A DNA stretch of 64,000 nt from Eubacteriales bacterium (GCA_034178705.1 JAXFQY010000004.1:5987-69986); one strand, 5' to 3'; positions 3,937 through 47,563 are shown, counted from the first letter of the stretch. The notes: a model not told the origin generated them from the letters alone. Program-made: numbers and translations.

Positions 3937-3978
3937 AATTTCCCTCCTTAAATTTATGTTTCCGGGTCTTTCGACCGT

Positions 3979-4872: not shown

Positions 4873-4882
4873 CCGGCACCTC

Positions 4883-5827: not shown

Positions 5828-5828
5828 C

Positions 5829-24049: not shown

Positions 24050-24817
24050 TCAACACAGGTCGGCGCGTAGGCGCAGGCGGAAAACCAGAGAGGAAAGGCA
24101 GAACGCGCCAAGCGCCCAGAGGGTGCAATTCAGCAAGGCACCGCCGGGAATGGCCTGTCCCGCAAGCGCCGCCCGTGCAACTTCGACCGCATTTTCAAAA
24201 GGAAGTATACGGCAAAGCACGCCGAAGAAATTTCCTTCCGGAAAAACCGAGGAATCAAACCAGATACCGCCGAGAACCCCACAAAGCGAAATCAGAATGG
24301 AACAGCAGGGCGGCGCCGCTTTTTCTCCCAACAGGGCTCCAAACAAAACTCCCAGCGCAATAAACAGTACGGCACAAGGAATGAGAGAGAGAATCGACAG
24401 CAAAGCGTTTCCGATAAGAAGGCGTTCCCCCATCACGCCTCCGATCACCCCGCCGGCAAGATAGGTGACAACCGCCTCACCCGCCGAAACGAGGAGCAGC
24501 GGAAGTATATAACCCGCGACAAACTCTGCCGGGCGCATTGGGGAGGAGCAAAGGCGCAGCAAAAAAGCAGAGGACCGATCCTTGGATACCGACAGGGTTG
24601 CAAGCAGCATCACAAAGGAAAGGGCAAAAACGGCAATTCCCGGCGTAAGGTTCCGGATTTTGAAAATCGTCATCCCCGCTTCCGGTGGAATAACGGAATC
24701 AATTGCCGTCATCATCCCAAGCATTACAAGCGGAAAAGCAAAGCAGAAAAGGTAGCTGAGCGGATCCCGCAGCAGCTCCCGCAGACACCGTCCGGCAAAC
24801 GCGAAGGCGCGTTTCAT
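24050..24817 (-). CDS. ABC-2 type transporter permease
   Basis: 255-aa ORF with 6 hydrophobic segments. N-terminus CLRELLRDPLSYLFCFAFPLVML is typical of ABC-2 permeases. 4-nt overlap with the ATPase gene. Confidence 0.85.
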   Translation of the reverse strand: MKRAFAFAGRCLRELLRDPLSYLFCFAFPLVMLGMMTAIDSVIPPEAGMTIFKIRNLTPGIAVFALSFVMLLATLSVSKDRSSAFLLRLCSSPMRPAEFVAGYILPLLLVSAGEAVVTYLAGGVIGGVMGERLLIGNALLSILSLIPCAVLFIALGVLFGALLGEKAAPPCCSILISLCGVLGGIWFDSSVFPEGNFFGVLCRILPFENAVEVARAALAGQAIPGGALLNCTLWALGAFCLSSLVFRLRLRADLC

Positions 24818-25545
24818 TGTTTTTTCCCCCCTTCCGCAATAGCAATAAAGGCCTCTTCAAAGCGGTCCTTACCCGCAAGCCGTTTCAGCTCTTCAGCTGT
24901 TCCGCAAGCGGCAATTCTGCCCTGTACCATGATCGCAATCCGGTCACAGAGTGCCTCAGCCTCCTCAAGATAATGCGTTGTCAGAACAACGGTAACTCTG
25001 CCCTTAAGCATTTCTGCCGTTTTCCAAAGCTCACGGCGCGCAAGCACATCCAGTCCAAGGGTTGGTTCATCCAAAAAGAGAATCTCCGGCTGCGTAATCA
25101 AGGCCATCGCAATACTCAGACGTCGCTGCCATCCTCCGGAAAGCTTCCCTGCCCTCTTTTTTTCCTGCTCTCCGAGAGCAAATTCCTCAAGGCTGTGGGT
25201 AGCGCGTTCCCGTGCTTTCCCTCTGTCACAGCCGTAAAGACGCGCCATCAGCTCAAGATTCTCCCGGACAGTCAGATTCGGGGCAACCGCCGTCTCCTGG
25301 GGGGACAAATCGGTGATCCTCTTCACCTGCTCCCGTTCAGTCAGAATCGACCGTCCGCCGAGAAACGCCTCTCCTGATGTCGGACGCGCCAGGCAGGACA
25401 GCATCCGCACGGTCGTCGTCTTTCCGGCGCCGTTGACACCGAGGAGCCCGAAGAACTCCCCCTGAGTCACTGAGAAATCAATTCCGTCAACCGCCGTAAA
25501 GGCACCGAAGCGCTTTGTCAGCTTATCCGCTCGGATTGCTTCCAT
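24814..25545 (-). CDS. ABC transporter ATP-binding protein
   Basis: Walker A GVNGAGKTT, signature LSGGWQRRLSIAMAL, Walker B LFLDEPTLGLD. Confidence 0.93.
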   Translation of the reverse strand: MEAIRADKLTKRFGAFTAVDGIDFSVTQGEFFGLLGVNGAGKTTTVRMLSCLARPTSGEAFLGGRSILTEREQVKRITDLSPQETAVAPNLTVRENLELMARLYGCDRGKARERATHSLEEFALGEQEKKRAGKLSGGWQRRLSIAMALITQPEILFLDEPTLGLDVLARRELWKTAEMLKGRVTVVLTTHYLEEAEALCDRIAIMVQGRIAACGTAEELKRLAGKDRFEEAFIAIAEGGKKQ

Positions 25546-25770
25546 TTATTTGTCCTCCCTGCCAAGCTGTGCCGACAAAATCTGTTCGCGAATTGCGGCA
25601 GCCTCTTCCTTTGGCGGGATTGCCATTCCCTTATCCTGCCGCGCAAGAATCAGCAGCTCATCTCCCGGTCGGATCCCCAGCATGTCGCGCACCGTTTTCG
25701 GAATCACAATCTGTCCTTTCTCCCCAACTGTCGCAGTGCCCATAAAGCCTTCCTTTTTCTTTTGTTCCAT
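25546..25770 (-). CDS. AbrB/MazE/SpoVT-family DNA-binding protein
   Basis: GTATVGEKGQIVIPKTVRDMLGIRPGDELLI is the SpoVT-AbrB swapped-hairpin motif. Abuts the ABC ATPase start codon. Confidence 0.85.
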   Translation of the reverse strand: MEQKKKEGFMGTATVGEKGQIVIPKTVRDMLGIRPGDELLILARQDKGMAIPPKEEAAAIREQILSAQLGREDK

Positions 25771-25931: not shown

Positions 25932-26008
25932 GTGCCTTTAGCTCAGCTGGATAGAGCAACTGCCTTCTAAGCAGTAGGTCGTGGGTTCGAGTCCCCCAAG
26001 GCACGCCA
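25932..26008 (+). tRNA. tRNA-Arg (anticodon TCT)
   Basis: Hand-folded cloverleaf. Acceptor GTGCCTT/AAGGCAC, D arm GCTC..GAGC, anticodon arm ACTGC-CTTCTAA-GCAGT, T loop TTCGAGT, encoded CCA. One U-C mismatch in the T stem. Confidence 0.9.
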
Positions 26009-26017
26009 ATCCTATAT

Positions 26018-26095
26018 GGTGGGTATAGCTCAGCTGGTTAGAGCGCCAGGTTGTGGCCCTGGAGGCCGACGGTTCGAACCCGTTTACTCACCCCA
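26018..26095 (+). tRNA. tRNA-His (anticodon GTG) with encoded G-1
   Basis: Extra 5' G opposite discriminator C (His identity element). Anticodon arm CCAGG-TTGTGGC-CCTGG, T arm GACGG-TTCGAAC-CCGTT, encoded CCA. Confidence 0.93.
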
Positions 26096-26362: not shown

Positions 26363-27553
26363 TTATTCCTGTGTTTTCTTTTTTGCTTTTGCCGTAATCA
26401 TTACCACCATAGAAGCAGAAGCCAGCGCCGCAGCGACAATAACCCACATGGCGTCTCCGGTATCCGGGGTGCTTTCCCCAGCACCCGGAACCGTTGTTGC
26501 AGGTGCCGCAGTTGTTACAGGTGCTTCTGTTGTTACCGGCGCTGCCGTTGTCTCCGGCGCTTCGGTTGCAGTCTCTTCGACGCGATCAAAAATCGCCGCA
26601 ATCTCGGCAAAATTCGCGTTTGATTTCACTGCTGCTCCATAACGAAGCAGGGTTCCCTTAGTTGCCGTAAAGGTTTTTCCGGGCGTATAATGGCAGCACC
26701 ATTCAAATGCGTTCCCATCGTTACCGCCGAAGGTACCGCCGAGCCAGGTCAGCGTAAAACTTTCCATTTCAACATTGTTTGTACAGCCATAGAAGTTATC
26801 GATATGCGCGTTTTCTTCCACTGTTACATCCACTTTGCCGAGCACCACTCCGTCCGGGTAAGCGGCAGAACCGTGCAGAACCGAAACCTGTGCGTTTCCG
26901 CCAATTCGAATATGGGCAGTACCTGTGTAATTACCGGCAATGTTGCGGGAAAACGGAACAATATAAATGCTGCTGCCGGACAAAACCGTAATATTCACAT
27001 CTTTGTCCGAGTCAAGGGGAGGATCATCCTGCCCACTTTGATAGCCGCCGAGAAGACAGAATGCTTTCGCGATATTCTCGCCGGTCATGCTTGCGCCGGT
27101 CATCGTAACACCTTCTCCCACAGTAAGCGGATGATGCTGACCGATTACAAGCAAATTGGTTCCCAAAGCGACAAAGTCCATATTTTCAAATCGTGTATCG
27201 CCCCAACAGACAAAACGTGCCGGCTTAAACTGATAGCTTGCTCCTTCGGTACGATAATCCTTGCCGCCATATACCGAGGTAAAGGTAACGGAACCGGTAT
27301 ATTCCTCACACCAGTTGAAGGTCATCTGCTGCGTGAAAACCCCGCAGATAACGATTGTACAATTCTTTGTCAAGTCAAGATTTTCATAAGCGGTAAAAAG
27401 ATCATTTGTTGCTTTGTCAGGCGAGGAACCGTCTCCGGTTCCGGAATCCGAAAGAAAAACAACATTGTCCGCCGCTGAGACAGAGAAGGCAGGAACACAA
27501 AGGAGAAGCGCGAGAAAAACAGCAAGAGAGAGCCTGAATCGCTTTTTCATCAT
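26363..27553 (-). CDS. Secreted, C-terminally anchored surface protein of unknown function
   Basis: Start MMKKRFRLSLAVFLALLLCVPAFSVSA (signal peptide), a Cys/Gly/Thr-rich globular region, a T/P/A-rich linker (ATEAPETTAAPVTTEAPVTTAAPATT), then PDTGD + hydrophobic helix + KAKKK tail. Confidence 0.8.
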   Translation of the reverse strand: MMKKRFRLSLAVFLALLLCVPAFSVSAADNVVFLSDSGTGDGSSPDKATNDLFTAYENLDLTKNCTIVICGVFTQQMTFNWCEEYTGSVTFTSVYGGKDYRTEGASYQFKPARFVCWGDTRFENMDFVALGTNLLVIGQHHPLTVGEGVTMTGASMTGENIAKAFCLLGGYQSGQDDPPLDSDKDVNITVLSGSSIYIVPFSRNIAGNYTGTAHIRIGGNAQVSVLHGSAAYPDGVVLGKVDVTVEENAHIDNFYGCTNNVEMESFTLTWLGGTFGGNDGNAFEWCCHYTPGKTFTATKGTLLRYGAAVKSNANFAEIAAIFDRVEETATEAPETTAAPVTTEAPVTTAAPATTVPGAGESTPDTGDAMWVIVAAALASASMVVMITAKAKKKTQE

Positions 27554-27621
27554 AATTTTCCTTTCTTGATATATGAATATTTTTTCGGCTGCGCCGGAAA
27601 AATGCAAAGAAGTTGGAAAGA

Positions 27622-29784
27622 TCAATACCGATCCTTCACTGTCAGATATTCCGCTTTTTTGATCAGTACATTTCCCTTTCCCGTACCGATCTTCAAAGTA
27701 TGGGTACCGGATTTCAGGAGAAGGCGCACGGAAATGCTGTCTGTCGCTGTATAGATCTTCCCCTGTGCCGCTGTTGCGGAAAACCCGATTCCCCCGTATT
27801 TGCGCCCGTCCACCACCAATTCTTCGGCAAGAATGCTGGACGGATTTTCATAGGTAATCCGCAGGAGTTGTTCTGTATTCTCCCGTCCATCCGGAATGTC
27901 CAAAGCCACAAGCTGTCTTCCGGATGCATCGAGCTCTCCGAGACTTCCGCCTGCAATCAGCGTCTCTTCTACGCGTACAAGGAGAAGTTCATCAATTCTG
28001 CCGGAGCAAGCCGCGCTTTTTGAGGCATCTCCGTCAACTCTCTCCACGCGGAAACCAAGCTCAGCCGTTTCGGCCTCCGCACGGAAAATCAACTCCCGAC
28101 GCACGGTATTCTGCGCTTCATATTTCGTTGGAGCGGTCACAGAGTTAGCACTGACGGCAACCGTTTTCCCGCCGCTCCGAACATAAAGATAGCCGTTCAC
28201 ACCGTCAGCGGTACAGAGGAACGCCGAGAAACGGTAGCTCGCCCCCACAGTCAGTCCTTTTATCGTGGTGCAAAGCTCTGCAGTTCCGTATAATTCCGCA
28301 GCATACTCGCCGGTTGTCGCCAGATTTCCGACCTTCACGGTTCCCGTGTTTACCGTGTAACCGGTCAGGTCTCCGGTCTCAAACCCGTTGTTTTCCGGAG
28401 GTATTGCATCATACCGCAAAAGCGTTTCTTTGGGAATATAGTAAATGCCGTCACAGATGTATCCGCCGTTCTCGACCAGAACAGATTCAAAATTCGTGCG
28501 GTACTTTTCTATGATAGCCGAGATCTTCATCCTTTCCGGAAGCTTCATTGCGCACATCCAGTAGCCGGTCTTATCCCCCAGCGGACGATTCACAAATACC
28601 CCGTTCCCATCCTGCCAGACATATTGATTCACCGTCTCCGGGTTCTTCTCCATTCCGCCGATAATCGCAACTACGGAAAGTGCAATTCCCACGGTACTCT
28701 CACAATCATACCCTGCAAGGGAGCCGATCCGGCAGGTCTCGGTATAGTCACCTTCTCCGTAGAGCAGATCGAGCAATACGAATCCCGCATTGATTGTTGA
28801 GTCGGTCATTTTGGTCTGTCCCGCCAGATAGTGCCGGCGCTCCAGTTCCGAGTACGCGGCGCGCCAGTTATCCGGATAGGTCCGGTACAGCTCGAAGACT
28901 TCATCAACAACTGTAAGCTGATAGGCACCTGTAGGAAACACCTTTTCCGCTTCCCGGATCAATGTGGGAATATCCTTTTCAAAATAGGCAAGTGACATCA
29001 TGACCGCAAACATCTGCGCCCACCCCACATTGTCCCGATCCCCGGTGACCGAGGCGCACATACCGGAAAGACGAAAGGCGGTCTCCGGCATCCCCGCGGC
29101 ATCCATACCGAGCGTGTCTGCTCCAAGATAGGGCTCTGTACAATAGCTGTACATATTTTCAAACTCTGCGTTTCCGGAAAACTGCGGCAGATATCCGTTG
29201 CGATTGATCAAGCCATATGCCCCGACCGTACGCTGACCGCCTCCCATATCGTAAACATCATACTTTTTCCAGCCCTCGCTCACCGATCGGGAGCATAATG
29301 TTCCGTATATTTTGTACATATCCGCCAGAATGTACTGATTGACCACATCAATTCCGAAGTCATCATCATTCCAGACCTCCCACAGTGTGCCATCCGCATT
29401 TTTCAGCAGTTTGACCGTGTGAGTCTTATGTTCGTTTTTCTTTGCATACGGTCCCTGACACATCGCAAACCAGCTGTCCGGCATCGCTACTCTTCCGCGT
29501 CCGCCCGGAAGTGTCACGAATTCATAGCCGGAAAGGGTTCCGACCAGCTGTGCAAGAAAACCAGCCGTTGTTTTATCCACATATTCGGCTACGGAGAGCA
29601 GCCGATATTCCTCTGCCGGAAGCAGGAGTTCTTTTCCGTTTTCATCTCGTATTAGATAAGTTGCTGCGGTTTCAGCGGATTTTTCGGTAGTTGTTGTATC
29701 TCCCAAAGCGGAACCGCACCCGCAAACAGAAGCAAGCAGCAGTGCAGAAAGCATCACAACCGCAAGGTTTCTTTTCATTGTCAT
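27622..29784 (-). CDS. Lipoprotein: ADP-ribosylglycohydrolase-fold (ARH-like) domain fused to CBM-like beta-sandwich domains
   Basis: Start MTMKRNLAVVMLSALLLASVCGCGS (lipobox); ATGA overlap with the upstream stop. ARH-like motifs DKTTAGFLAQLVGTLSGYEF, VWNDDDFGIDV and SLAGYDCESTVGIALSVVAIIGG. CBM4/9-like NNGFETGDLTGYTV... segment. The family call is by motif memory only. Confidence 0.6.
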   Translation of the reverse strand: MTMKRNLAVVMLSALLLASVCGCGSALGDTTTTEKSAETAATYLIRDENGKELLLPAEEYRLLSVAEYVDKTTAGFLAQLVGTLSGYEFVTLPGGRGRVAMPDSWFAMCQGPYAKKNEHKTHTVKLLKNADGTLWEVWNDDDFGIDVVNQYILADMYKIYGTLCSRSVSEGWKKYDVYDMGGGQRTVGAYGLINRNGYLPQFSGNAEFENMYSYCTEPYLGADTLGMDAAGMPETAFRLSGMCASVTGDRDNVGWAQMFAVMMSLAYFEKDIPTLIREAEKVFPTGAYQLTVVDEVFELYRTYPDNWRAAYSELERRHYLAGQTKMTDSTINAGFVLLDLLYGEGDYTETCRIGSLAGYDCESTVGIALSVVAIIGGMEKNPETVNQYVWQDGNGVFVNRPLGDKTGYWMCAMKLPERMKISAIIEKYRTNFESVLVENGGYICDGIYYIPKETLLRYDAIPPENNGFETGDLTGYTVNTGTVKVGNLATTGEYAAELYGTAELCTTIKGLTVGASYRFSAFLCTADGVNGYLYVRSGGKTVAVSANSVTAPTKYEAQNTVRRELIFRAEAETAELGFRVERVDGDASKSAACSGRIDELLLVRVEETLIAGGSLGELDASGRQLVALDIPDGRENTEQLLRITYENPSSILAEELVVDGRKYGGIGFSATAAQGKIYTATDSISVRLLLKSGTHTLKIGTGKGNVLIKKAEYLTVKDRY

Positions 29785-31265
29785 TGTTCCGGTTTGAACA
29801 GTGCGTCGTTCAGCTTTTGAATCGAACGTTCTGCACTCCGCTGATAGGAACGCCATGCTGAAGAGAAACTTGTGGAATACGCCTTTGAAAGATTTTCAAC
29901 CATATCCTTCATTCCACCGATGTTGAAAATATAACCGATGTCGAAAATACGGTTCTCCATCTCAATGGTGATCATATTATGACTTTCCTCATCCTGTATA
30001 TAGGTTCCGACAAGGGTCTTTGTGTAATAGGCGGGGGTCACCATCTGCCGGGAAATATAGGCAAGGTATTCCATGATGGCGGAAGTACGTTCGTCATTTT
30101 CGGTAGAATTCGGTACACAGACAAACGCGGCGTCCCATCCGCCGAACGGGGTATAGTAGCGGCTCTGTGCTTCGTCCAGTTTCGGAAGCGGCAAAATGCC
30201 GTAATCCAACTGTGTATCCCGGTAATACGGGAACATTACATGCTCTCCGAGTCGGAAAAGGCAATGCCCTTCAGCAAACATTCCTGTGGCGGAAAGTCCG
30301 CCCGTAGCAGTCTGTCCGTTATAGACATGCTCCCGGTCCTGGGTCAGCTCAATAAAGCCGACAATGGCATTTTCCGCTCTCTCCGTTCCGAGCGTAAGCT
30401 CTACCTTTCCGTCCTCTCCGATCTGCGCAAAACGCTCGCCGGACATATTCAGCGCCGCGACAACCGTACTGTGGATATAAACCATACCGTAAAGATCGTT
30501 GGAATCCATCTTATCGTCAGCGTTAAGATCTCTTGAAACCGCGGTAATATAGGATTTCATTTTGTCGAAGGTCCAGGTCCCGTTTTCCACATCCTGATAG
30601 GGCATATCCCATCCCTTTTCACGGAACATGGTTTTGTTGAAAACCATGTTGTACATGGCAACCGTCGTTACAAGGCTGATGTCTCCGGTCGTGAAATACA
30701 AGCGGTCATTCACGGTTATATCCCTGTTTATATTCTGATCCCACCATTCCCGATCCAGGTCGAGATACCCGTAAGTTCTCAGATCACGCAGATCACCGGA
30801 GGTAGTCAGCGTGCCGCAATCGTATGTGGAAATGATCCCCATATCATAGTTGGAATCCCCGGAGGTGTTTGCTTGGCGGATCAGGGAAACTCCGCTGTTG
30901 GTTGATTTATAATCCTCAATTCCGGTAATCACGATGTCAAGCCGTGCCATGGCAGCCATATTACGCCGGTAAAGTGCTTCATCAAGAACAGTCCCGCCCG
31001 CTGGCTCCGAGAAGTCCCGGATAATCGTGGGATCACTGTTCAGATTCGTCATCAGAACGACAAACTCATGCCCGTTGTAGGTCTCATCCGGAAGTCCCGG
31101 ATAGGCAAGCGGGTCTGCGGTAGTTTCGGAAACAGGATTCTCGCCCTGGGAAGAGGTGGTCGCTTCCGTGGTCACCGAGGGCTTTTCCGCGGCGCACGCA
31201 ACAAAAGCAGAACAGAGTAGGAAAAGCGCCAAAAGCAGGGAAAGGTGTCTTTTTGCGTTCTTCAT
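29781..31265 (-). CDS. Orphan family-1 solute-binding-protein-like lipoprotein
   Basis: MKNAKRHLSLLLALFLLCSAFVACAAE lipobox. About 490 aa, SBP-like (WWDQN.., GTWTFDKM..). No permease or ATPase genes adjacent. Confidence 0.8.
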   Translation of the reverse strand: MKNAKRHLSLLLALFLLCSAFVACAAEKPSVTTEATTSSQGENPVSETTADPLAYPGLPDETYNGHEFVVLMTNLNSDPTIIRDFSEPAGGTVLDEALYRRNMAAMARLDIVITGIEDYKSTNSGVSLIRQANTSGDSNYDMGIISTYDCGTLTTSGDLRDLRTYGYLDLDREWWDQNINRDITVNDRLYFTTGDISLVTTVAMYNMVFNKTMFREKGWDMPYQDVENGTWTFDKMKSYITAVSRDLNADDKMDSNDLYGMVYIHSTVVAALNMSGERFAQIGEDGKVELTLGTERAENAIVGFIELTQDREHVYNGQTATGGLSATGMFAEGHCLFRLGEHVMFPYYRDTQLDYGILPLPKLDEAQSRYYTPFGGWDAAFVCVPNSTENDERTSAIMEYLAYISRQMVTPAYYTKTLVGTYIQDEESHNMITIEMENRIFDIGYIFNIGGMKDMVENLSKAYSTSFSSAWRSYQRSAERSIQKLNDALFKPEQ

Positions 31266-31291
31266 AAGATCCTCCTAATATATTTTATTTT

Positions 31292-33241
31292 TTAAATCTT
31301 TCGAATATCAAATCTCATCTCATCCGGTGCAAGGCAATAGTCACCCAGATCGACGGAAGTATCAAGGGGATTGTAGGTAACCGTAAGGAGACGCTTGCCG
31401 TCTGCGGAAAGATATTCCCCGCGGCGGACAAAACCCGGAAGCTCCAGATCGGATGTCGCGGTAAAAGTACCGTCCAGGAAAAACTCCCTGTACTCTATCA
31501 GCGTGTCTGTATATGCTTTGACAGCGGCAGCATATTTCGGCGCAGCATCAAGATGCGCACGGCAGACATAAAGCTCTGCATCGAGACGGAGACCGTAGAC
31601 AAGCGCACAACGCAGCCGGCGTGCAAAATCGCCCTCCTCGTCCCGAATTCCCCGTTCGGTTGTAATCACCTCCGGGAAGGTATAGCGGAACATCGCCGGG
31701 AAACTGTCTCCGCGAATCGAAAAATCGACATTCACGAGACCGTGCATGAACTGATTGTAGCTTGCGGCAACGTCGGTGACCACCTCGGCGGCCAGTACCT
31801 TTCCGTGCTTTTTGCAGTAGTCCTCCGCCTCGGCAAAGAACTGCCGGCGGTAATACCACTCTCTGTCGACCCGGTTGCCATGCTCATGTTGATCGTTGAA
31901 GCAGGGCTGATACGGGCATCCGCCGATACAGTCGGCAAAGGTACAATCGGCGCCCAGTTCGTCAAGCTGCCTGATCTGTGACAAAACCTGATTCCGCCAT
32001 TTCTCGGTTCCGAAACAGCAAAGGGGAAACTGCACGGCGCCGTAAGTCACACGATACTCTCCGTATCCCGGATAGACGAAGGCGGGGCGAACCTCATTTC
32101 CGTTAATATCGAGGATCGCAAGCTCTGCTCCGTTTTCCCGATAATAATCCGTTTTGGGATCCATGAAGTGACAGTTACATTCCAGAATCACCCGCCCGCC
32201 GAGGGCACGGACACGCTCAATACCCTCCTTCAGCTTCCGGAAGGCACCGGGATACGGTTCCTCATAAACCGGATAGCCGCGGTCCATTCCCTCCTTCCAC
32301 CAGGCAAAAAGGAACAGGGTATGTATCCCGTACTTGGCACCGATCCGATAAAGCTCAGGCAGATCGTCGGCCGTCACATAATCCTCCCCGTATTGAGAAC
32401 GCATAATGATCCGCTGCCAACCGGTCATTTCCCGAACCCAGGGTGCCTTTTCGGGAAGCCGGAAAAAGCTTCGGTCCGCCCATTCGCGGTATTTCTTCGC
32501 CCCGGCACGCCAGTCCCCTTCCAGCATTCCAATCACAACAGGAGGATACTCCACCGTCTCGCCCCGGCGCGCCATCGGGAAATGATCGACGCCTACCATC
32601 AGGTCGCTCGGGTTGCTGTGAATTCTTTGGCGAACGGTCAGAAAACAATGCCGCGCTTCTTCGTCGTAACGGGAAACATACAGAAAACGTCCTGCGCTCT
32701 GCACACCGAACCATCCCATTGACGCACGGGGATAGTGAAGATGCCAGAAGGTTTCGTGCTCATTGTGGAAATAATAGCGCGTCGTCAGACCGGAGAGCAC
32801 CTTCCAGGGATTTTTTGCACAGGTTCCGAGACCGTGCGGAAGATACAGTTTGTCCTTCTCCTTCTCTCCGCCGAGGGAAGTAAAATCGGCAAGAGGACAA
32901 AAGCACTCATTCACACGCAGCGCAGCGTGATTCTCAATGCGCGTTGTAAAGGAAAGCAAATCTCCCTCAGCGCGCACCGTAACTGTGAAACGGACCTGAA
33001 CAGAATCCCCGTAACCGGTTCGAAGCATCGGATAGTCAATGGTAAGAGAATCTCCGTTCTGCATTACCGTACCGCTCTGTTCGTGGGAAAAAACAGGAAT
33101 CTCTGTGCGCATTCCGTCATCCAGAATCAAGCGCCAAAAATCTGCTCCTTCATAGGGAATCACACCGTCAGCAAGAAAACAAGCCCTGCTGCCATCGGAA
33201 GACACCGAAAAATCCAAACCTTTGCTGTGTAGTGTCAGCAT
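31292..33241 (-). CDS. Cytoplasmic glycoside-hydrolase-like protein (putative TIM barrel; family not recognised with certainty)
   Basis: 649-aa ORF with a good RBS (TAGGAG) and no signal peptide. The central segment GIHTLFLFAWWKEGMDRGYP..GGRVILECNCHFMD looks like glycosidase barrel strands (inference). Confidence 0.7.
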   Translation of the reverse strand: MLTLHSKGLDFSVSSDGSRACFLADGVIPYEGADFWRLILDDGMRTEIPVFSHEQSGTVMQNGDSLTIDYPMLRTGYGDSVQVRFTVTVRAEGDLLSFTTRIENHAALRVNECFCPLADFTSLGGEKEKDKLYLPHGLGTCAKNPWKVLSGLTTRYYFHNEHETFWHLHYPRASMGWFGVQSAGRFLYVSRYDEEARHCFLTVRQRIHSNPSDLMVGVDHFPMARRGETVEYPPVVIGMLEGDWRAGAKKYREWADRSFFRLPEKAPWVREMTGWQRIIMRSQYGEDYVTADDLPELYRIGAKYGIHTLFLFAWWKEGMDRGYPVYEEPYPGAFRKLKEGIERVRALGGRVILECNCHFMDPKTDYYRENGAELAILDINGNEVRPAFVYPGYGEYRVTYGAVQFPLCCFGTEKWRNQVLSQIRQLDELGADCTFADCIGGCPYQPCFNDQHEHGNRVDREWYYRRQFFAEAEDYCKKHGKVLAAEVVTDVAASYNQFMHGLVNVDFSIRGDSFPAMFRYTFPEVITTERGIRDEEGDFARRLRCALVYGLRLDAELYVCRAHLDAAPKYAAAVKAYTDTLIEYREFFLDGTFTATSDLELPGFVRRGEYLSADGKRLLTVTYNPLDTSVDLGDYCLAPDEMRFDIRKI

Positions 33242-33505
33242 ACGAATCTCCTAAAACCATTTTCCTGTCTTTCAGTTTCTTTTCTTTTAATTTCATTATA
33301 GCAAAGCGAAATGGGAAATTTCCATACACCTCCACTGCTCTCTTTTTTAAAATATGAAACACTCCCGGCTTTGCGTCAGACAGCTTGCAACACAGATTCT
33401 GCGATTCCCCCCAAATTCATAAAGAGAGGAATCTTGCCTTTTCTGCAGAACTGTGTTACAATAAAAACAGATTTTGCCCAAACAACCGGAGAAAAGGAGA
33501 CTCTC

Positions 33506-35077
33506 ATGAAACTTAGCTATAAGAGAACGGTGCTTGTCGGCTTTGCCTTTTTCCTGATTTGCCTCTTTTGGCAGGCATACGACAATACGATCCCTCTTAT
33601 CCTCACAAACAAGTTCGGCATGTCGCAGACCCTATCCGGAGCAATCATGGCACTTGACAATGTTCTGGCGCTCTTTCTTCTTCCGTTTTTCGGCGCATTG
33701 AGCGATAAGTGCGCTTCCAGATTCGGAAAACGCACGCCCTTTATTGCCGTCGGAACGGTTGCTGCCGCAGTTCTTTTTGTTTGTCTGTCTTTTGTGGACT
33801 CCGCCCAGATGACCCGTCTGGAGGATGTAACCCTGGACCGCTATGAATCCTCTCTTGCGGTTATCTACGATTCCAACCCGACAATTTCTCTTCCCGAGGA
33901 GACTGCAGACGGTATGTCTGTCGGAGAGGCCATTCACCATGTATTTTCTTCGGGGCAAAAAAAACCTCTTCAGGAAATCTATCCGAACCGCAGTGAGTTT
34001 CTTGCTATAAAAATGTACCGCGAGGATGGAACACTGACCGAAGAGTATGAGAACTATGTTAAACCGGCACGCAATGCCTATGCATGGCAGCAAACAGCGG
34101 ATAATCCAAACACCCTTATCTTTTTTATCCTTCTCCTGCTCTGTACGCTCGTTGCGATGGGCACATTCCGTTCCCCCGCTGTTGCCTTGATGCCTGATGT
34201 TACGCCGAAGCCTCTCCGATCGAAGGCCAATGCGATTATCAATCTGATGGGTACCTTCGGTGGAATCACCGTGCTTGTGCTCGGAATGATCTTCAAGACC
34301 GGATCGGCAAAGAACATATATATGAACTACACTCCTTTTTTCATCGTGGTCAGTATACTGATGCTGCTTTCCCTCGCCATATTCCTGATGACGGTCCGGG
34401 AACCGAAATGGAGTGCAGAAGCCGAAGCCCTTTCCGCCCCGGCAGAAACGCAAGAGCTGTCGGACTCCCTTCAATCAGGGCGTCTTTCCGCGGAGGAACG
34501 GCGTTCGCTTTTGTTCATTCTTGCTTCTGTCGCCCTTTGGTATATGGGTTATAATGCGGTAACCAGTAAGTATTCGGTTTATGCGCTCAATGTTTTGGAA
34601 AAGGATTACAATACCACCTTGCTGATTGCACAGGCAGCAGCCATCGTTTCCTATCTGCCCATCGGGTTTCTCTCCACCAAAATCGGCAGAAAGAAAGCGA
34701 TTCTCGGAGGCGTCGCCATTTTGACTGTTTCTTTCGGAGCGGCCGCATTTATGCGGCATGACAGCCCGACTGTACTGATGAATCTTTTGTTTGCACTTGC
34801 CGGCATCGGCTGGGCGACAATCAATGTCAATTCGTATCCGATGGTTGTTGAGCTTGCAAAGGGGGGCAATGTCGGAAAGTATACCGGTTATTACTACACG
34901 GCCAGTATGGCAGCACAGACAATCACGCCGATTCTCAGCGGATTTTTTATGGATATACATATGACATCACTGTTTATCTACGCAGCCTTCTTTGTTCTTC
35001 TTGCGTTCTTTACCATGCTTTGCGTGCGCCATGGCGACACAAAGCCGATTCATCCTGGGATACCGGAGGCAGAGTGA
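33506..35077 (+). CDS. MFS transporter (GPH/SLC45-like) with a large extracytoplasmic insertion
   Basis: ATG 33506 after an AAAGGAG RBS. MFS motif-A-like GALSDKCASRFGKRTP between TM2 and TM3. About 12 TM segments. About 105-aa hydrophilic insert between TM3 and TM4. Confidence 0.85.
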   Translation: MKLSYKRTVLVGFAFFLICLFWQAYDNTIPLILTNKFGMSQTLSGAIMALDNVLALFLLPFFGALSDKCASRFGKRTPFIAVGTVAAAVLFVCLSFVDSAQMTRLEDVTLDRYESSLAVIYDSNPTISLPEETADGMSVGEAIHHVFSSGQKKPLQEIYPNRSEFLAIKMYREDGTLTEEYENYVKPARNAYAWQQTADNPNTLIFFILLLLCTLVAMGTFRSPAVALMPDVTPKPLRSKANAIINLMGTFGGITVLVLGMIFKTGSAKNIYMNYTPFFIVVSILMLLSLAIFLMTVREPKWSAEAEALSAPAETQELSDSLQSGRLSAEERRSLLFILASVALWYMGYNAVTSKYSVYALNVLEKDYNTTLLIAQAAAIVSYLPIGFLSTKIGRKKAILGGVAILTVSFGAAAFMRHDSPTVLMNLLFALAGIGWATINVNSYPMVVELAKGGNVGKYTGYYYTASMAAQTITPILSGFFMDIHMTSLFIYAAFFVLLAFFTMLCVRHGDTKPIHPGIPEAE

Positions 35078-35078
35078 T

Positions 35079-35912
35079 ATGGTATGGCTTTTTTCCCTTG
35101 CAGGGATTCTTCTGCTCTGCTTCTTGCTGTTTTGCTTTCTCATTGCTCCAAGCCGGAGAGGAAACCGGACACGGGATTTCTTTTCCGATAAGCGGTATTA
35201 CGCCCATCGCGGGCTGCACGGAGGGGAAATCCCGGAGAATTCTCTTGCCGCGTTTGAAGCGGCCTGCCGTGCCGGATACGGGATTGAATTGGATGTGCAC
35301 CGTACCGCAGACAATCAGCTTTGCGTTTTTCATGACAGAACGCTGAAGCGGATGTGCGGCGTGGACGGCACAGTAGAGGAAAACACCCTTGCCGAGCTGC
35401 GCACGCTTGCTCTTGCCGGCACACAGGAGCGTATTCCTTCCTTTGACGAGGTTCTGACACTGATTGACGGACGGGCGCCGCTGATTGTGGAAATCAAGGG
35501 AGAAAACAGGGATACGGATGTATGTCGTCTGACAGCGGAGCGTCTGCGCGCCTATTCCGGAAAATACTGCGTTGAGTCCTTCAATCCGTTTTATATTTCC
35601 TGGTGGCGCAAACACATGCCCCATGACGTGCGCGGCATTCTTTCCTGCCGGATGAAGAACGGAAAAAGTTTTCGGGGTCGACTGCAGGATTTCCTGCTTT
35701 CCAACCTGTTGCTCAATGTCATTGCGCGCCCCGATTTTCTTGCTTACAGCATTCCGGACCGCGGGAATTCCGCCTTCCGTCTTTCCCGGCGTTTCGGGGG
35801 CTGCCCGGTTGGCTGGACCTGCCGGACGGAGGAGGAAAAAGCGGCTTCTGAGAATGCGTTCTGCGTTGTAATATTTGAAAAAATCCGTCCGGATCCGGAG
35901 AGTCTGCAATGA
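35079..35912 (+). CDS. Membrane-anchored glycerophosphodiester phosphodiesterase (GDPD)
   Basis: N-terminal TM helix, then YYAHRGLHGGEIPENSLAAFEAACRAGYGIELDVHRTADNQLCVFHD (GDPD catalytic motifs). Starts 1 nt after the MFS stop. Confidence 0.9.
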   Translation: MVWLFSLAGILLLCFLLFCFLIAPSRRGNRTRDFFSDKRYYAHRGLHGGEIPENSLAAFEAACRAGYGIELDVHRTADNQLCVFHDRTLKRMCGVDGTVEENTLAELRTLALAGTQERIPSFDEVLTLIDGRAPLIVEIKGENRDTDVCRLTAERLRAYSGKYCVESFNPFYISWWRKHMPHDVRGILSCRMKNGKSFRGRLQDFLLSNLLLNVIARPDFLAYSIPDRGNSAFRLSRRFGGCPVGWTCRTEEEKAASENAFCVVIFEKIRPDPESLQ

Positions 35913-36715
35913 ATAAACCCAATTTCCTCAAGGAAACGCTTGCGAAGAAAGAACTCTTCATTTTCGATATGGATGGTACAATCTACCTTGGCGACCGCGT
36001 ATTTGATGCAGCCGTCCGGTATATCGACCGACTGCGTAAAAGCGGCAAACACGTGCTGTTTTTTACCAACAATGCAAGTCACACCTCGTTTTTTTACCGT
36101 TCCAAACTTTCCCGCCTCGGTTTTTCCCCACAGGACGGGGAAATCATGACCAGCGGAGACGTGACAAAGGTATATCTGAACAGATTCCGACCGGGAAAGA
36201 CCGTTTTTCTCGTCGGAACCGACGAGCTTACCGAGGATTTCCGGAGCAGCGGCATTCCGCTCGCCGACATTCATGCGCCACGCGCGGATCTTGTTGTGAC
36301 AAGCTTTGATACCTCCCTGACCTACGAAAAGCTTGAGGCCGCCTGCCGCTTTATCCGAGACGGAGCGGAGTATCTTTCTACCCATCCGGATTTCAACTGC
36401 CCGACCGAGCACGGCTTTATCCCGGACAGTGGAGCGATTGCCGCATTTGTAACCGCTTCTACCGGGGTCACTCCGGTTTATTTTGGCAAGCCGTATCCGG
36501 AAACCGTTCAAATGATTTGCGAAGCAACCGGCTGCACTAAGAATGAAATGTGTGTATTCGGCGACCGTCTTTATACCGATATTGCTCTCGGTGTCCGAAA
36601 CGGTGTTACCAGCGTACTGGTTATGACGGGCGAGACAACGAAAGCGCAGCTGGAAGCGGCCGCTCCGGAGGAAAAACCCTCCTTTGTCATTCCGTCTTTC
36701 TCAGCGCTTCTCTGA
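35909..36715 (+). CDS. HAD-IIA family sugar-phosphate phosphatase (NagD-like)
   Basis: FIFDMDGTIYLG (DxDGT), FFTNNAS, GKP, and GDRLYTDI motif IV. 4-nt overlap with the GDPD gene. Confidence 0.9.
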   Translation: MNKPNFLKETLAKKELFIFDMDGTIYLGDRVFDAAVRYIDRLRKSGKHVLFFTNNASHTSFFYRSKLSRLGFSPQDGEIMTSGDVTKVYLNRFRPGKTVFLVGTDELTEDFRSSGIPLADIHAPRADLVVTSFDTSLTYEKLEAACRFIRDGAEYLSTHPDFNCPTEHGFIPDSGAIAAFVTASTGVTPVYFGKPYPETVQMICEATGCTKNEMCVFGDRLYTDIALGVRNGVTSVLVMTGETTKAQLEAAAPEEKPSFVIPSFSALL

Positions 36716-43929: not shown

Positions 43930-44664
43930 TCAGTTTTTCCGCCCGCAGCGGAGATAAGCAAGGAGAGCGCCCGCCGGACCAAGATCGGAAATCAACCTAT
44001 CCCCGAGGGTAACCGCGCCGCCCGCCGTTCCGATCGTCTCGGGCGTATGGGCGTCGGAATCATAGAGCACAGGCGAGCCCTCCGGCAAATATATATGGTA
44101 TTTATCATAGCTGCCCCGATCCCGAAGCTCAAATGCCGTAAACCCAGCCTCCGGAGGCACGGTTCCGAAAAAAGCAACGGCGCCGTTTGCCGTACGGTCG
44201 ATATGTGCCGGCAAAGCAACTCCTCCGAAGCTCTCGACACAGCGCTTCGCATCGTTGAAGGCAAGGTCGGTATCACCCGAAAGAAGCCAACGCTCTTCCG
44301 AGAGAATATTGTCCTCTTCGTCGCATATAAGCTGCCGTCCGAAAAAAGCAGGATCGTTCTCGGTACGGATCAGACGGGAGGAAACAAATTCGTCAAAGGC
44401 CATCACCCGCTCCAGCCTGTCAAAAAGGCAGAGGACATGAACCCCCTCCACGGTGGAAAGCTCCAGACCTCCGAGCGGGGTCAGACCGTAAAACTCCGCG
44501 GCACGGAAAAAAGCGGGGCAGTTTTTTGCGCTGTTATGATCGGTCAGTGCCGCCAGATCCAGTCCGAGAAGCTTACAGGATCCGGCGATAAAGGCAGGGG
44601 TCATGACATCATCCCCGCAGGGAGACAAGCAGGAATGAATGTGCAAATCGTACCGGATGCGCAT
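43930..44664 (-). CDS. PHP (polymerase/histidinol-phosphatase) domain metal-dependent phosphoesterase
   Basis: MRIRYDLHIHSCLSPCGDD...LTDHNS are PHP motifs. GGGAGG RBS. Confidence 0.85.
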   Translation of the reverse strand: MRIRYDLHIHSCLSPCGDDVMTPAFIAGSCKLLGLDLAALTDHNSAKNCPAFFRAAEFYGLTPLGGLELSTVEGVHVLCLFDRLERVMAFDEFVSSRLIRTENDPAFFGRQLICDEEDNILSEERWLLSGDTDLAFNDAKRCVESFGGVALPAHIDRTANGAVAFFGTVPPEAGFTAFELRDRGSYDKYHIYLPEGSPVLYDSDAHTPETIGTAGGAVTLGDRLISDLGPAGALLAYLRCGRKN

Positions 44665-44679
44665 TTTCCTATCCTCCCG

Positions 44680-46188
44680 TCAGTATGCGTCGTTGCGAAT
44701 CGTCTCCAAAGCGCCAAGCGCACCGTAATAATTCCGGAAATGAACATCAAGCAAGTCCTCTCCGGTCGTAATCGCCTGCAGAATCGTCTGCGTCGTGCCG
44801 GCGGCAAGAAGCGGGTAACGCGCGTTCAGATTTACCGCCAGATCAAAATAAGGGACATCCAGAATAATCGACAGCATCTCAACTGAGCGCTCATTGCGGG
44901 AAAAGGAATAAAAATAAGTATTCAGATAAGCTTCGGAAAGACATCCGGCAGCCCGTACATTCAGTGCCTCAATCAGAAGCGACGCCTCCGCTGTAGACTC
45001 GCTTCCCTCCGGGATGGCAAAAAGCATGGCAGAGCCCACAGTGGGAGTGACATAGGTCAGCTGCTCCTCCGAGATTTTGGGAACCGGAAGCGGAATCATT
45101 TCATCTTGTGCGTTCCGGAAGCGTCTGGCATCATACACAGAGCCGAAGAAGAAAAGAGAACGTCTGCCGCAGAAAAGCTCATATTCCGTCGGCTCGTAAT
45201 ACTCGCCGAGCTCCTCGTCGTAAAAGTTTTTTTTCTCTTCCTCAGTCAAAACACAGCCATACTGCCCACCGGAGAACAGTTCACGCATCCCCGCCACAAG
45301 GGTCTGCGGCGCTCCGACGGGAGAATAGAAGGTCATCTTTCCTGCACGGTTATCGACATACTGGACACCGCATCCTTCAAAAAACGTGAGAGAAACCGTC
45401 TCCTCGTCGTACTCGGAAAGGATACCTGTACAGGCGATATCCGAACTGCCCGCTCTCTTGGAAGCCGACAGCATCGCATCAAGGGTCCACGCCCCCTGAC
45501 GTACCGTTTCGCACAGATCGGAAAGACCGAGAGATTGGACAAGCCCATCGTTCACATAAAGGCAGCGGAAGACATCCGGATTAATCCCCGCTTCTCCGGC
45601 AATACCGTAGACTTTGCCGTCCACCGAAGCGGAAGCCACAGAGGACGGATAATAATACTCAGAGTCCAGCGTGAGAAAGGGCATTTGAGAAAGATCGGCA
45701 ACAAGACCGTCCGCAAAAAATTCCGCGAAACTGCCGGATTCAAGCAGAAGAATATCGGCATAATACAGTCCTGCCGTTTTGGCATCCTTCAGCTTTTGCG
45801 GCATATCTGCCGGCTTGTCGGCAGTAACAAGCAGAGAAATGCCGTATTTATCCTGCACCTCATTCAGCACCTTCCAACGGGCACCGTCAATCAGCGTTGA
45901 GGTGCCGGACGGTTTCGGAACTGAGGAATCCGCTGTCGCAAGAACAATCGTTTTTCCGTTCATATCATAACCGACCATCGATTGGAGCGCCTGCGACGCC
46001 TTCTCATCCGCGGACAGCTTCTCCGTCGGGGGATTGACTCCTGTATTCTCACTTGTTGCGGCAGGCGTTGTCTGCGTTTCCGTCGTCATTTCCGCCGGAC
46101 GGTTGACGACGATCAGACAGGAAGGAAGGAAAGGCATCAAAGCGCAAAGAAGCAGAGCACACAGAACAGAAACAGCATTCTTCTTCAC
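44680..46188 (-). CDS. Orphan solute-binding-protein-like lipoprotein
   Basis: MKKNAVSVLCALLLCALMPFLPSC lipobox, T/P-rich linker. About 500 aa, SBP-like, with no cognate permeases nearby. Confidence 0.8.
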   Translation of the reverse strand: MKKNAVSVLCALLLCALMPFLPSCLIVVNRPAEMTTETQTTPAATSENTGVNPPTEKLSADEKASQALQSMVGYDMNGKTIVLATADSSVPKPSGTSTLIDGARWKVLNEVQDKYGISLLVTADKPADMPQKLKDAKTAGLYYADILLLESGSFAEFFADGLVADLSQMPFLTLDSEYYYPSSVASASVDGKVYGIAGEAGINPDVFRCLYVNDGLVQSLGLSDLCETVRQGAWTLDAMLSASKRAGSSDIACTGILSEYDEETVSLTFFEGCGVQYVDNRAGKMTFYSPVGAPQTLVAGMRELFSGGQYGCVLTEEEKKNFYDEELGEYYEPTEYELFCGRRSLFFFGSVYDARRFRNAQDEMIPLPVPKISEEQLTYVTPTVGSAMLFAIPEGSESTAEASLLIEALNVRAAGCLSEAYLNTYFYSFSRNERSVEMLSIILDVPYFDLAVNLNARYPLLAAGTTQTILQAITTGEDLLDVHFRNYYGALGALETIRNDAY

Positions 46189-46240: not shown

Positions 46241-47563
46241 TCAAAAGCGATAGCGCCGACCCCGTTTGGAATGCCGCCGGCGTATATAGGCGGAAATCAA
46301 GATATAAAGCACCGTAAAAACAACGGCGGCAATACAGGTAGCACGGAAAAATCGCCCCTTTGACCACTCCTTCACATTTTCGAGCAAATAGAGGAAAGAG
46401 TTCCGTTCCACAGAGTCTCCGGTGATCAGCTCAACCGAACCGAGCTGGGTATCCCCATAGTAAATATTCAGATATCCGGCGGTCTGCCCCTTTTCCACAG
46501 GCGCAGCCAGACTTTCGGAGGAAAGACGGTAGCTTGTGCGGATTTCCTTATCCACGTCCACATCGGTCGGCAGGTAAACGGTCAATCCGTTTTTCGGATA
46601 CAGCAGGACAAAGTCTGTGGTAGCGGAAAGGGTTACGGGTATTTCACACACCGGCTTTTCGAGAGCAATTACCTCACGGTAGCCGAAATTCTCGACTCCG
46701 TAGGTCAGCAGTTTTTTTACTGCGGTCATGGCATAATCGGTTCCGCCGACCGGATCCTCTTCCCCGCCGATAACAACGGCAATGTAGGTCAGTCCGTTAT
46801 GGCTGGCACTGGATGTACAGGTCACGCCGCTTTCATCGGTCGAGCCATAGTTCATCCCGCGCGCATATTCGTAGTAATATTTGGTCTCCTGAAAACGGGA
46901 AACCACACTGTTTTTGTTGTAGATCGTACGGCGGTCGCTTTTGTTGTTTTCCGGAATGATATACTTCACAACACTGGAAATGGCAAGCAGCTGCTCCTCC
47001 TTTGCAAATTCCAGCGCAATCTTCAGGGTGTCGTTTACAGTGGTGACCATCTGCGGCTCATGCATGCCGCCTGGATTGAGATAGAAGGTGTCCTGCATGC
47101 CCAGCTCCTTTGCATAGGCATTCATCCGGTCGACAAACGCCGATACGGTATCGGCAGTCAGACAGGCAAGTGCATAGGCGGCATCATTGGATCCGCGCAG
47201 AAGCATCGCATAGAAAAGTGACTCGATCGAAACTTCCTCTCCCTCCGCAAAACCCGTGCGATACCCCTGCACGCCGTTGATCATCCGTTGGGTAATTGTA
47301 ATTGTTTCCTGCATCCGGTCGGAAAGAGCACGGTAAGCAAGAACTGCCGTCATCAGTTTGACGCTCGACGCAGGGTAAACCGCTTCCTCCGCATGAAGCG
47401 AGTAAAGCACACAGTCATTTTCCACATTGTATAGAACGGCTGCCCGCACAGCGGTCAGCTCCGGCGCTTCTGCAGCAAAAGCAGGAAGAGTAAAAAGAGA
47501 AAGGGAGGGTAAAAAAAGCAGGAGCAAAAGCAGAAGCGCCATACAGCGCAATCCGTTTTTCAC
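46241..47563 (-). CDS. D-alanyl-D-alanine carboxypeptidase (PBP5-type serine peptidase) with C-terminal anchor
   Basis: SxxK (ASSVKLMT), SxN (GSNDAA), signal peptide, and a C-terminal TM helix plus basic tail. Confidence 0.9.
   Translation of the reverse strand: MKNGLRCMALLLLLLLFLPSLSLFTLPAFAAEAPELTAVRAAVLYNVENDCVLYSLHAEEAVYPASSVKLMTAVLAYRALSDRMQETITITQRMINGVQGYRTGFAEGEEVSIESLFYAMLLRGSNDAAYALACLTADTVSAFVDRMNAYAKELGMQDTFYLNPGGMHEPQMVTTVNDTLKIALEFAKEEQLLAISSVVKYIIPENNKSDRRTIYNKNSVVSRFQETKYYYEYARGMNYGSTDESGVTCTSSASHNGLTYIAVVIGGEEDPVGGTDYAMTAVKKLLTYGVENFGYREVIALEKPVCEIPVTLSATTDFVLLYPKNGLTVYLPTDVDVDKEIRTSYRLSSESLAAPVEKGQTAGYLNIYYGDTQLGSVELITGDSVERNSFLYLLENVKEWSKGRFFRATCIAAVVFTVLYILISAYIRRRHSKRGRRYRF

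Follow-up and report, generated by a model that had tools for sequence, protein, structure and literature searches.

Four minus-strand open reading frames (ORFs), here termed G1 to G4, span positions 26363-33241 of a 64,000-nucleotide stretch of DNA from Eubacteriales bacterium (GCA_034178705.1, JAXFQY010000004.1:5987-69986), referred to below as the window. We show here that they form a genuine conserved four-gene operon in uncultured gut Clostridia, the host being an uncultured gut Clostridium (Eubacteriales/Oscillospiraceae-like), and that all four protein families are uncharacterized. In the reading that we favor, and whose chances we judge to be about even, the operon is a spoke of glycan utilization, in which the solute-binding protein (SBP)-like lipoprotein G2 would feed an ABC permease/ATPase encoded elsewhere. 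The other products are a cytoplasmic glycosidase-like protein (G1), an exported lipoprotein with an ADP-ribosylglycohydrolase (ARH)-like domain and a carbohydrate-binding module (CBM) (G3), and an anchored surface protein (G4).

Conservation and architecture of the operon

The arrangement of the four genes recurs on many unrelated contigs, and the operon is therefore not a chance juxtaposition. For an SBP-centered sample, the G2 alignment was scanned against one genome per GTDB species, which gave at least 588 confirmed matches; the best 80 of these were all in metagenome-assembled genomes of uncultured Clostridia, Eubacteriales, or Oscillospiraceae (~43 genomes) from gut, rumen, or digester. 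ORFs were called in 85 SBP-centered loci, containing 107 family genes, and then searched with iterated hidden Markov models (HMMs). A G1-centered sample of 41 loci was obtained by an independent scan of metagenome contigs. Co-occurrence of the four families in other genomes, which the original prediction had named as a check, was found on at least 11 other contigs. Carriers of the module include the metagenome-assembled genomes JAZQXE, JAFSSQ, CAAFBM, and SVSB. The order DUF6259-SBP-ARH-G4, with DUF6259 denoting the family of G1, was present in L011 and L033 of the SBP-centered and in L095, L096, L104, and L106 of the G1-centered loci. Permuted or partial versions of the module were detected in the SBP-centered loci L017, L018, L019, L026, and L085, and DUF6259-SBP-G4-G4-ARH in the G1-centered loci L099 and L100, with a fused version in L098. 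In 9 of the 10 informative loci with a G1 homolog at least 58% identical, the SBP gene immediately followed it; once identity fell under about 57%, no SBP was present and DUF6259 occurred in other contexts. The closest relative, L088 (77 to 83% identity), carries a GDPD gene, followed divergently by DUF6259-SBP-G4, and has neither an ARH nor a major facilitator superfamily (MFS) transporter gene.

The three exported proteins are also linked to one another by domain fusions. N-terminal G4 domains occur on 13 of 120 listed ARH homologs, and 149 G4-family representatives include 8 ARH fusions and 2 SBP fusions, with 1 to 7 tandem copies of the domain. Single polypeptides comprising a full SBP domain and a C-terminal G4 domain are encoded at L065 9764-12229 and L071 10007-12451, and P0407 is a further protein of this kind. 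Among the G4-domain proteins in the loci (n = 41), 13 carry GH43, 9 SLH, and 6 Cu_amine_oxidN1.

Several loci depart from this composition. DUF5696 replaces DUF6259 in L007 (6526-13419 and 19004-21986) and L067 (2700-8277), in the arrangement AraC / DUF5696 - SBP-like - ARH - GH43; since the DUF5696 protein of L067 weakly matches DUF6259, the two families may be related. In L062 (6021-7979) and L071 (12552-14651), genes similar to GH76, the α-1,6-mannanase family, adjoin SBP, G4, or ARH genes, so that different modules of the G1-G4 kind probably target different glycans. A gene for a XerC/D-like tyrosine recombinase lies directly downstream of an orphan SBP gene in L001 (11621-12463), L008 (11597-12439), and L090 (13953-14960), and is followed in L001 and L008 by genes of cohesin/dockerin/leucine-rich-repeat surface proteins.

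ORF calling in the window returned the single four-gene minus-strand unit of the original prediction with the coordinates and spacing given there: G1 and G2 are separated by 26 nt, G2 and G3 overlap by 4 nt (ATGA), and G3 and G4 are 68 nt apart. The overlap turns into a 2-nt gap if G3 begins at its second ATG (MKRN...), a start suggested by the 718-aa database twin P0121, which is 99% identical; an exact-match lookup of the G3 sequence retrieved no record. Coupling of G2 and G3 is tight whichever start applies. G1, G2, and G4 are preceded by clear Shine-Dalgarno sequences. A sigma-70-type promoter is predicted at 33295-33324 on the minus strand (TGGAAA, 18 nt, TG-c-TATAAT); the consensus scan counted 10 of 12 matches plus the TG and recovered, besides the −35-like TGGAAA, the extended −10 element TGcTATAAT at 33303-33295 (minus strand) that had been noticed earlier. 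The terminator proposed downstream of G4 also reappeared, as an intrinsic-terminator-like hairpin at 26297-26255 (minus strand) with a 20-bp stem including 12 GC pairs, followed by TTTATATATT, as judged from a terminator scan and direct reading. Because the same scans placed a promoter-like site and a hairpin, both weak, in the gap between G3 and G4, G4 may also be transcribed alone. When 25.5-37 kb was compared with Rfam at E values up to 1, the only matches were the two tRNAs and spurious hairpin families on the terminator, with no riboswitch and no known RNA element in the operon leader.

Features of the four proteins

The localization signals agree with the earlier description of one cytoplasmic glycosidase-like protein and three exported proteins, and sequence and profile searches assigned none of the four to a characterized CAZy family, a possibility that had been raised together with that description.

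G1 (31292-33241, minus strand) encodes a 649-aa cytoplasmic protein without a signal peptide, with a clan-GH-D-like architecture, and is a candidate retaining α-glycosidase. It matches Pfam DUF6259 (E = 8e-18), a family for which we know of no characterized member; a literature search for DUF6259 and DUF5696 found no paper in the library covered. Nine G1 homologs, compared with Pfam at E values up to 10, matched no family other than DUF6259, and neither phmmer nor the family profile matched any chain in the PDB. An AlphaFold2 model built from 37 homologs (pLDDT 92.4, pTM 0.92) consists of an N-terminal β-sandwich, a (β/α)8 barrel, and a C-terminal β-sandwich. Its best Foldseek match was the GH129 3,6-anhydro-D-galactosidase 5opq (E = 1e-26, TM-score 0.69), and the α-N-acetylgalactosaminidase NagBb (5wzq; TM-score 0.69 to 0.73), many GH36 α-galactosidases, GH101, and GH31 were matched as well. 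Overall, the comparison with GH129 and GH36 structures gave E values of 1e-26 to 1e-21 and TM-scores of 0.55 to 0.73 at identities of 12 to 17%. Acidic residues at barrel positions, among them D320, D361, D437, and E486, are invariant in 37 sequences and are candidates for the catalytic nucleophile and acid/base pair. In its predicted three-domain architecture, G1 thus resembles GH129 (NagBb and the Zobellia 3,6-anhydro-D-galactosidase) and GH36, with TM-scores of about 0.69 to 0.73, and it shares its intracellular location with NagBb; it differs from them in the low identity, in the lack of any PDB sequence or profile match, and in its assignment to DUF6259. As judged from the model, G1 is glycosidase-like at the level of the fold, yet outside every characterized family by sequence.

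G2 (29781-31265, minus strand) encodes a 494-aa divergent SBP_bac_1-type lipoprotein, whose lipobox Cys24 is invariant across 21 homologs. G2 itself has no Pfam match above threshold; SBP_bac_1 is matched by 11 of 21 aligned family members, and hhalign related the family profile to the canonical SBP of the window with a probability of 77%. Against the PDB, the single sequence yielded nothing meaningful and the family profile marginal SBP matches. At E values up to 1e-3, 184 homologs were found, some of which are named "extracellular solute-binding protein" by their sources. G2 preserves the architecture of SBP_bac_1 together with numerous conserved aromatic residues, and by these sequence comparisons it is a true SBP relative. 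The window contains a second SBP-like lipoprotein gene of this size (~500 aa) at 44680-46188 (minus strand), whose product is a distant G2 relative (20% identity, E = 3e-10). It is situated between the genes of a PHP/CehA-like metallohydrolase (43930-44664) and a D-Ala-D-Ala carboxypeptidase (46241-47563), both on the minus strand, and has no permease gene nearby either.

G3 (27622-29784, minus strand) encodes a 720-aa lipoprotein (Cys21/Cys23) in which an ARH-fold domain is joined to a CBM4_9-like module, with a β-sandwich at the C terminus. The ARH-like domain (~residues 62-455; 28420-29601, minus strand) is supported by conserved acidic motifs and alignment columns, and the CBM4_9-like module (~residues 462-600; 27985-28401, minus strand) by comparison of the profile with CBM structures. 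G3 passes the curated cutoff of Pfam ADP_ribosyl_GH (PF03747) with 38.6 versus 26.2 bits, residues 178-383 being aligned to profile positions 89-286. All 17 aligned homologs match the ARH family (best E = 3.6e-13), and 13 of the 17 match CBM_4_9. The conserved motifs are E88, W-x-D140-D141-D142, YDxYDMGGG (175-183), and GYDCEST (358-364) or GHGGDST, and their acidic residues are placed, as we presume from the motifs of ARH3 and DraG, where these proteins bind two metal ions, which we regard as a lead. The family splits into GYDCEST and GHGGDST motif types at residues 358-364, and its member P0236, devoid of the DDD and C-terminal acidic motifs, may be an inactive paralog. In the PDB, the G3 family profile matched structures through its CBM part only (8xmz, E = 2e-6, and CBMs of alginase, xylanase, and galactanase), and a search with the single sequence gave nothing meaningful. 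At E values up to 1e-3 the family comprises 136 proteins; among the 120 listed there are versions with dockerin, SLH, or Cu_amine_oxidN1, and the family therefore appears to be extracellular and carbohydrate-directed. Given this location and the CBM and dockerin fusions, we argue that the substrate of G3 would be a glycan rather than an ADP-ribosyl group.

G4 (26363-27553, minus strand) encodes a 396-aa exported protein with a signal peptide (residues 1-27), a ~300-aa domain (30-330) predicted to be a β-solenoid, a Thr/Pro linker, the sortase-type motif TPDTG (26456-26470, minus strand), a transmembrane segment, and a Lys-rich tail, the hydrophobic segment and the KAKKK tail following at 26366-26452. 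No Pfam or NCBIfam match was found, and a search of the PDB with the single sequence gave nothing meaningful. The AlphaFold2 model shows a stack of short strands with pLDDT of about 85 to 95 over residues 30-330; Foldseek returned nothing significant (best E of 1.4 in the PDB and 0.03 in BFVD, TM-scores below 0.4), and nearly all of the weak matches are right-handed β-helix proteins. The modeled strand pattern and the kind of weak structural matches suggest a β-solenoid fold. The family is small, with 365 clusters among 1.84 billion representative proteins, and the conserved columns across 41 members hold Gly, Ala, Val, and Thr only, with no acidic or basic residue, and G4 is for this reason probably a noncatalytic structural or binding module. 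Its C terminus reads TPDTG-D, followed by 21 hydrophobic residues and KAKKKTQE. An xPxTG[DS] motif with a transmembrane segment and a basic tail was likewise seen in 19 of the 149 family representatives, from which we think that this is probably a sortase-type wall-sorting signal and not just a transmembrane helix. The earlier description of G4 as an anchored surface protein is therefore retained as to export and anchoring, with a predicted sortase signal taking the place of a transmembrane anchor alone. The TPDTG-type motif is absent from the G4 orthologs in L011 and L033, and a scan of the window for a sortase gene by the TLxTC motif gave only a fortuitous match (TLLTC) in a 1185-aa predicted lipoprotein (signal ...LAGLASC) encoded at 55050-58607 (minus strand).

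Transport context and competing explanations

In the scenario that we favor, for which we infer catalysis by G3, a binding role of G4, the ligand, and the use of a distal permease, the lipoprotein G3 would hold a polymeric glycan at the cell surface through its CBM4_9-like module and cut it with its putatively metal-dependent ARH-fold domain, and G4, probably a noncatalytic sortase-anchored β-solenoid, would help to bind or present the glycan. G2 would capture the freed oligosaccharide and pass it to a distal CUT1 permease/ATPase, the sole candidate for which in the window lies at 3979-6932. In the cytoplasm, the GH129/GH36-like (β/α)8 enzyme G1 would remove an α-linked sugar. A divergent AraC/cupin regulator, whose gene is missing here, would sense the product in relatives. 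As ARHs cleave ribofuranosyl-type bonds and the family partners GH43, the bond cut by G3 is guessed to be furanosidic or α-linked. A GH43-type target (arabinan, arabinogalactan, or arabinoxylan) is likewise a guess, made because a GH43 partner recurs in the loci and is replaced by ARH/CBM and G4 here.

AraC/cupin regulators are encoded divergently upstream of DUF6259 in relatives, and because both these regulators and G1 are cytoplasmic, the product must enter the cell. Locus L108 has the order DUF5107-x-DUF6259-canonical SBP-permease-permease-GH43, and L102 the order permease-permease-SBP-GH-DUF6259-AraC-type response regulator-kinase; a Bacteroidales DUF6259 copy belongs to a cluster HTCS-DUF5107-DUF6259-GH43-BNR. 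The SBP of L108 holds exactly the position of G2. In the simplest history, the permease genes would have been lost and G2 would now work with a translocon encoded elsewhere. A CUT1-type ABC sugar importer with ATPase, two permeases (3979-5827), and canonical SBP is encoded at 2527-6932 on the minus strand (ABC_tran, BPD_transp_1 twice, and SBP_bac_8 with E = 9e-36). It is the only complete CUT1 system in the window, about 23 kb away from the operon, and a candidate trans-acting translocon for G2, a link that we infer.

The original prediction had stressed that the operon contains no permease, ATPase, or regulator gene, and this is confirmed by our analysis, which extends the permease-less state to the G2 family as a whole. 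In the SBP-centered loci, iterated permease HMMs, which detect PotB/C, found no permease gene adjacent to any of the 107 family genes, and just 4 of the 85 loci have importer permease genes at a distance of up to 10 kb from the SBP gene. At least three of these four sets are part of other systems: those of L043 and L045 are complete importers that include a canonical SBP, and that of L055 is PotABCD-like. In the fourth, L065, the contig ends within the set. Remote G2 homologs (about 28 to 33% identity), including three tandem copies in L090, are likewise unlinked to permeases. As this holds for relatives, remote homologs, and the orphan at 44680-46188 alike, the missing permease characterizes the SBP family as a whole and is not an accident of the G1-G4 operon. 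Further points weigh, together with this lack of linkage, against the scenario that we favor. No transcriptional regulator is encoded within 25.5-37 kb of the window. The absence of an ARH gene from L088 indicates that the module is modular. The G3 family profile matches no solved ARH structure in the PDB, and because it finds CBM structures and not ARHs, the catalytic domain must be very divergent; nor do we know of any ARH-fold glycoside hydrolase. Moreover, the SBP-G4 fusions and the tight SBP/ARH coupling suit a surface complex as well as transport.

Further details of the SBP neighborhoods complete this survey. L055 was considered as an SBP-less permease set and rejected, because its PotABCD-like system includes a binding protein. 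Pfam searches with 140 unassigned immediate SBP neighbors identified AraC regulators (14), LacI-type regulators (4), GH43, and housekeeping proteins, and BPD_transp_1 was not among the families listed. L020 (1314-21463) encodes seven orphan-SBP paralogs within 21 kb without a permease; they are interleaved with ~450-aa proteins, the N termini of which resemble cytoplasmic β-helix (pectate-lyase-like) proteins.

The original prediction had viewed the SBP-like lipoprotein as a scaffold or ligand-capture protein rather than a transporter component. In this form of the argument, G2 would be a glycan-capture or scaffold subunit at the surface in complex with G4 and the ARH/CBM enzyme, and uptake would proceed via unrelated carriers. 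We consider this unlikely, albeit with some observations on its side. The lack of permease linkage extends over at least 85 loci and to distant homologs; SBP and G4 are fused in the proteins of L065 and L071 and in P0407; SBP and ARH genes overlap by 1 to 7 nt in the window, L002, L011, L033, and L036; a G4-domain or ARH gene directly follows the SBP gene in 17 of 107 cases; and paralogs are extremely numerous in the family, up to 7 of them lying within 21 kb (L020). However, a cytoplasmic G1 and AraC/cupin regulators require import of the substrate, L108 has a canonical SBP at the position of G2 with permeases following it, both the SBP_bac_1 architecture and a large number of conserved aromatic residues are retained in G2, and sharing of one translocon by several SBPs is established in other ABC systems. 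The fusions and the SBP/ARH coupling lend something to the scaffold idea; against it stand the cytoplasmic enzyme and sensors and the canonical SBP-permease-permease loci with DUF6259. A still bolder version, in which the G2-type lipoproteins (~500 aa) are surface scaffolds forming a Gram-positive counterpart of the Sus system and the exported ARH domain founds a new metal-dependent class of polysaccharide-active proteins, appears to us similarly doubtful. The module might instead remodel or recycle an envelope glycopolymer of the producer itself, such as a wall polysaccharide or a teichoic-acid-like polymer, with the ARH domain trimming a ribofuranosyl or ribitol decoration. Tethering of all three exported proteins to the producer's surface, the GDPD and HAD phosphatase neighbors in the window, the GDPD gene adjoining the module in L088 as well, the action of ARH enzymes on ribose linkages, and the ARH genes in ribose-utilization loci of Bacteroidetes (bioRxiv 10.1101/574913) are consistent with such a role. 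Nevertheless, GDPD adjacency is confined to the window and its closest relative, the neighbors in other loci (AraC, GH43, GH76-like, DUF5696, and DUF5107) are typical of a polysaccharide-utilization locus (PUL) for nutrients, and the dockerins of homologs point to a cellulosome-type attack on external substrates, which makes this explanation improbable.

Two further explanations arise from the immediate surroundings of the operon. A gene overlooked in the earlier description, divergent from G1 and sharing with it a 264-bp intergenic region, encodes an MFS transporter at 33506-35077 (plus strand), weakly similar to GPH and sucrose symporters (Pfam MFS_1 and MFS_2; NCBIfam gph, E = 3e-13, below the curated cutoff) and containing a long hydrophilic central loop. 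It is followed by a GDPD gene (about 35079-35912) and an HAD-IIA gene (35909-36715). This carrier could import the product of the operon here, leaving to G2 only the concentration of substrate at the surface; besides the shared intergenic region and a weak resemblance to symporters of the GPH, sucrose, and melibiose type, the known pairing of an α-galactosidase with a GPH carrier in melAB speaks for it. But the MFS gene is absent from L088 and every other locus examined, it is in line with the GDPD and HAD genes and may belong to that unit, and its NCBIfam scores are all far below the curated cutoffs, so that we give this explanation little credence. Because the GDPD gene of L088 directly adjoins DUF6259, the MFS gene would represent an insertion or loss specific to a lineage. 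The suggestion that the operon is accessory DNA next to tRNA genes did not stand up. The block is located directly downstream of tRNA-Arg (25932-26008) and tRNA-His (26019-26095), which are on the strand opposite to the operon, and its gene content varies among relatives, ARH and MFS genes being present or absent. In spite of this, no second tRNA-His 3' end within 3 mismatches and only chance-level short direct repeats were detected in 25.8-37 kb, no integrase ORF was among those called, the GC content of the operon (0.49 to 0.54) is like that of the rest of the window, and the neighbor on the GDPD side is kept in L088. Chance cannot account for synteny and fusions that recur on so many contigs, and a horizontally acquired island, or a juxtaposition without common function, is in our view very improbable. 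Just upstream of the tRNA pair, an unrelated exporter unit at 24050-25770 (minus strand) comprises genes for an AbrB/SpoVT-like regulator, an ABC ATPase, and an ABC-2 (DrrB-like) permease.

Relation to known systems and implications

Gram-positive PULs (gpPULs) have been described in Roseburia, Eubacterium, and Ruminococcus. The G1-G4 module resembles them in bringing together a CBM-bearing enzyme tethered to the surface, a lipoprotein of the SBP type, and a cytoplasmic glycosidase-like protein, in the AraC-type regulators that accompany the modules of relatives, and in the dockerin or SLH domains of homologs. Of the three features that define a gpPUL, a polysaccharide-active enzyme is suggested by the modeled fold of G1 and the CBM of G3, whereas an ABC permease/ATPase in or near the locus and a regulator are both lacking; moreover, as stated above, the four proteins are outside the characterized CAZy families by sequence. 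G2 shares with CUT1 importers its affiliation to the SBP_bac_1 superfamily of lipoproteins, a complete CUT1 system being present in the same window. Several binding proteins are known to share one translocon, as in HisJ/ArgT-HisQMP and the Ami/Ali oligopeptide systems, and the MsmK ATPase is shared as well. The G2 family differs from such systems in that all of it, with at least 588 matches and up to 7 paralogs in 21 kb, is without linked permeases, and to our knowledge translocon sharing on this scale has not been described for sugar SBPs. A literature search for orphan SBPs found no paper, and one on a Paenibacillus SBP was set aside as irrelevant. If G2 were a scaffold, it would be comparable to SusD/E/F of Bacteroidetes as a surface lipoprotein that binds glycan beside surface enzymes; this analogy would be functional only, as the fold of G2 is unrelated and a SusC-like partner is lacking.

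Similar considerations apply to G3 and G4. G3 shares with the ARH family (DraG, ARH1, and ARH3) the match to PF03747 above the curated threshold and, presumably, acidic motifs conserved at the two-metal positions. It differs from these proteins in being exported and lipid-anchored, in its fusion to CBM4_9-like modules, with dockerin, SLH, or G4 as fusion partners in relatives, and in a domain of ~400 aa with large insertions, whose profile finds no solved ARH. G4 resembles right-handed parallel β-helix proteins (pectate lyase superfamily and tailspikes) in its stack of short strands and its weak structural neighbors, and sortase-anchored surface proteins in its xPxTG motif, transmembrane segment, and basic tail. 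Unlike members of the pectate lyase superfamily, it has no significant structural match and no conserved charged residues, and unlike both groups, its domain behaves as an accessory unit that is found repeatedly on GH43 and ARH enzymes. A literature search for ARH proteins with dockerin or CBM returned no paper. The sole link that we found is that ARH genes are mentioned for ribose-utilization PULs of Bacteroidetes (Glowacki et al., bioRxiv 10.1101/574913), a precedent for ARH genes within nutrient-acquisition loci.

The operon is not a categorically new kind of system. With its uncharacterized families it is a promising place to look for new carbohydrate-active proteins, and the module points to a candidate new CAZyme fold. 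If the proposed roles are correct, the operon would offer experimental access to four uncharacterized families that are common among uncultured Clostridia of gut and rumen. DUF6259 would then constitute a new glycosidase family of the clan-D-like type, present in Bacteroidales PULs too; exported ARH-fold enzymes with CBMs or dockerins would extend a fold of ADP-ribose signaling to extracellular glycan breakdown; and the G4 β-solenoid would be a new accessory module on GH43 and ARH enzymes. The permease-unlinked SBP family, with its hundreds of members, might reflect either hub-and-spoke sharing of a few translocons or a role of the SBP fold outside transport, and either answer would change transporter-based PUL prediction and substrate inference for Gram-positive gut bacteria.

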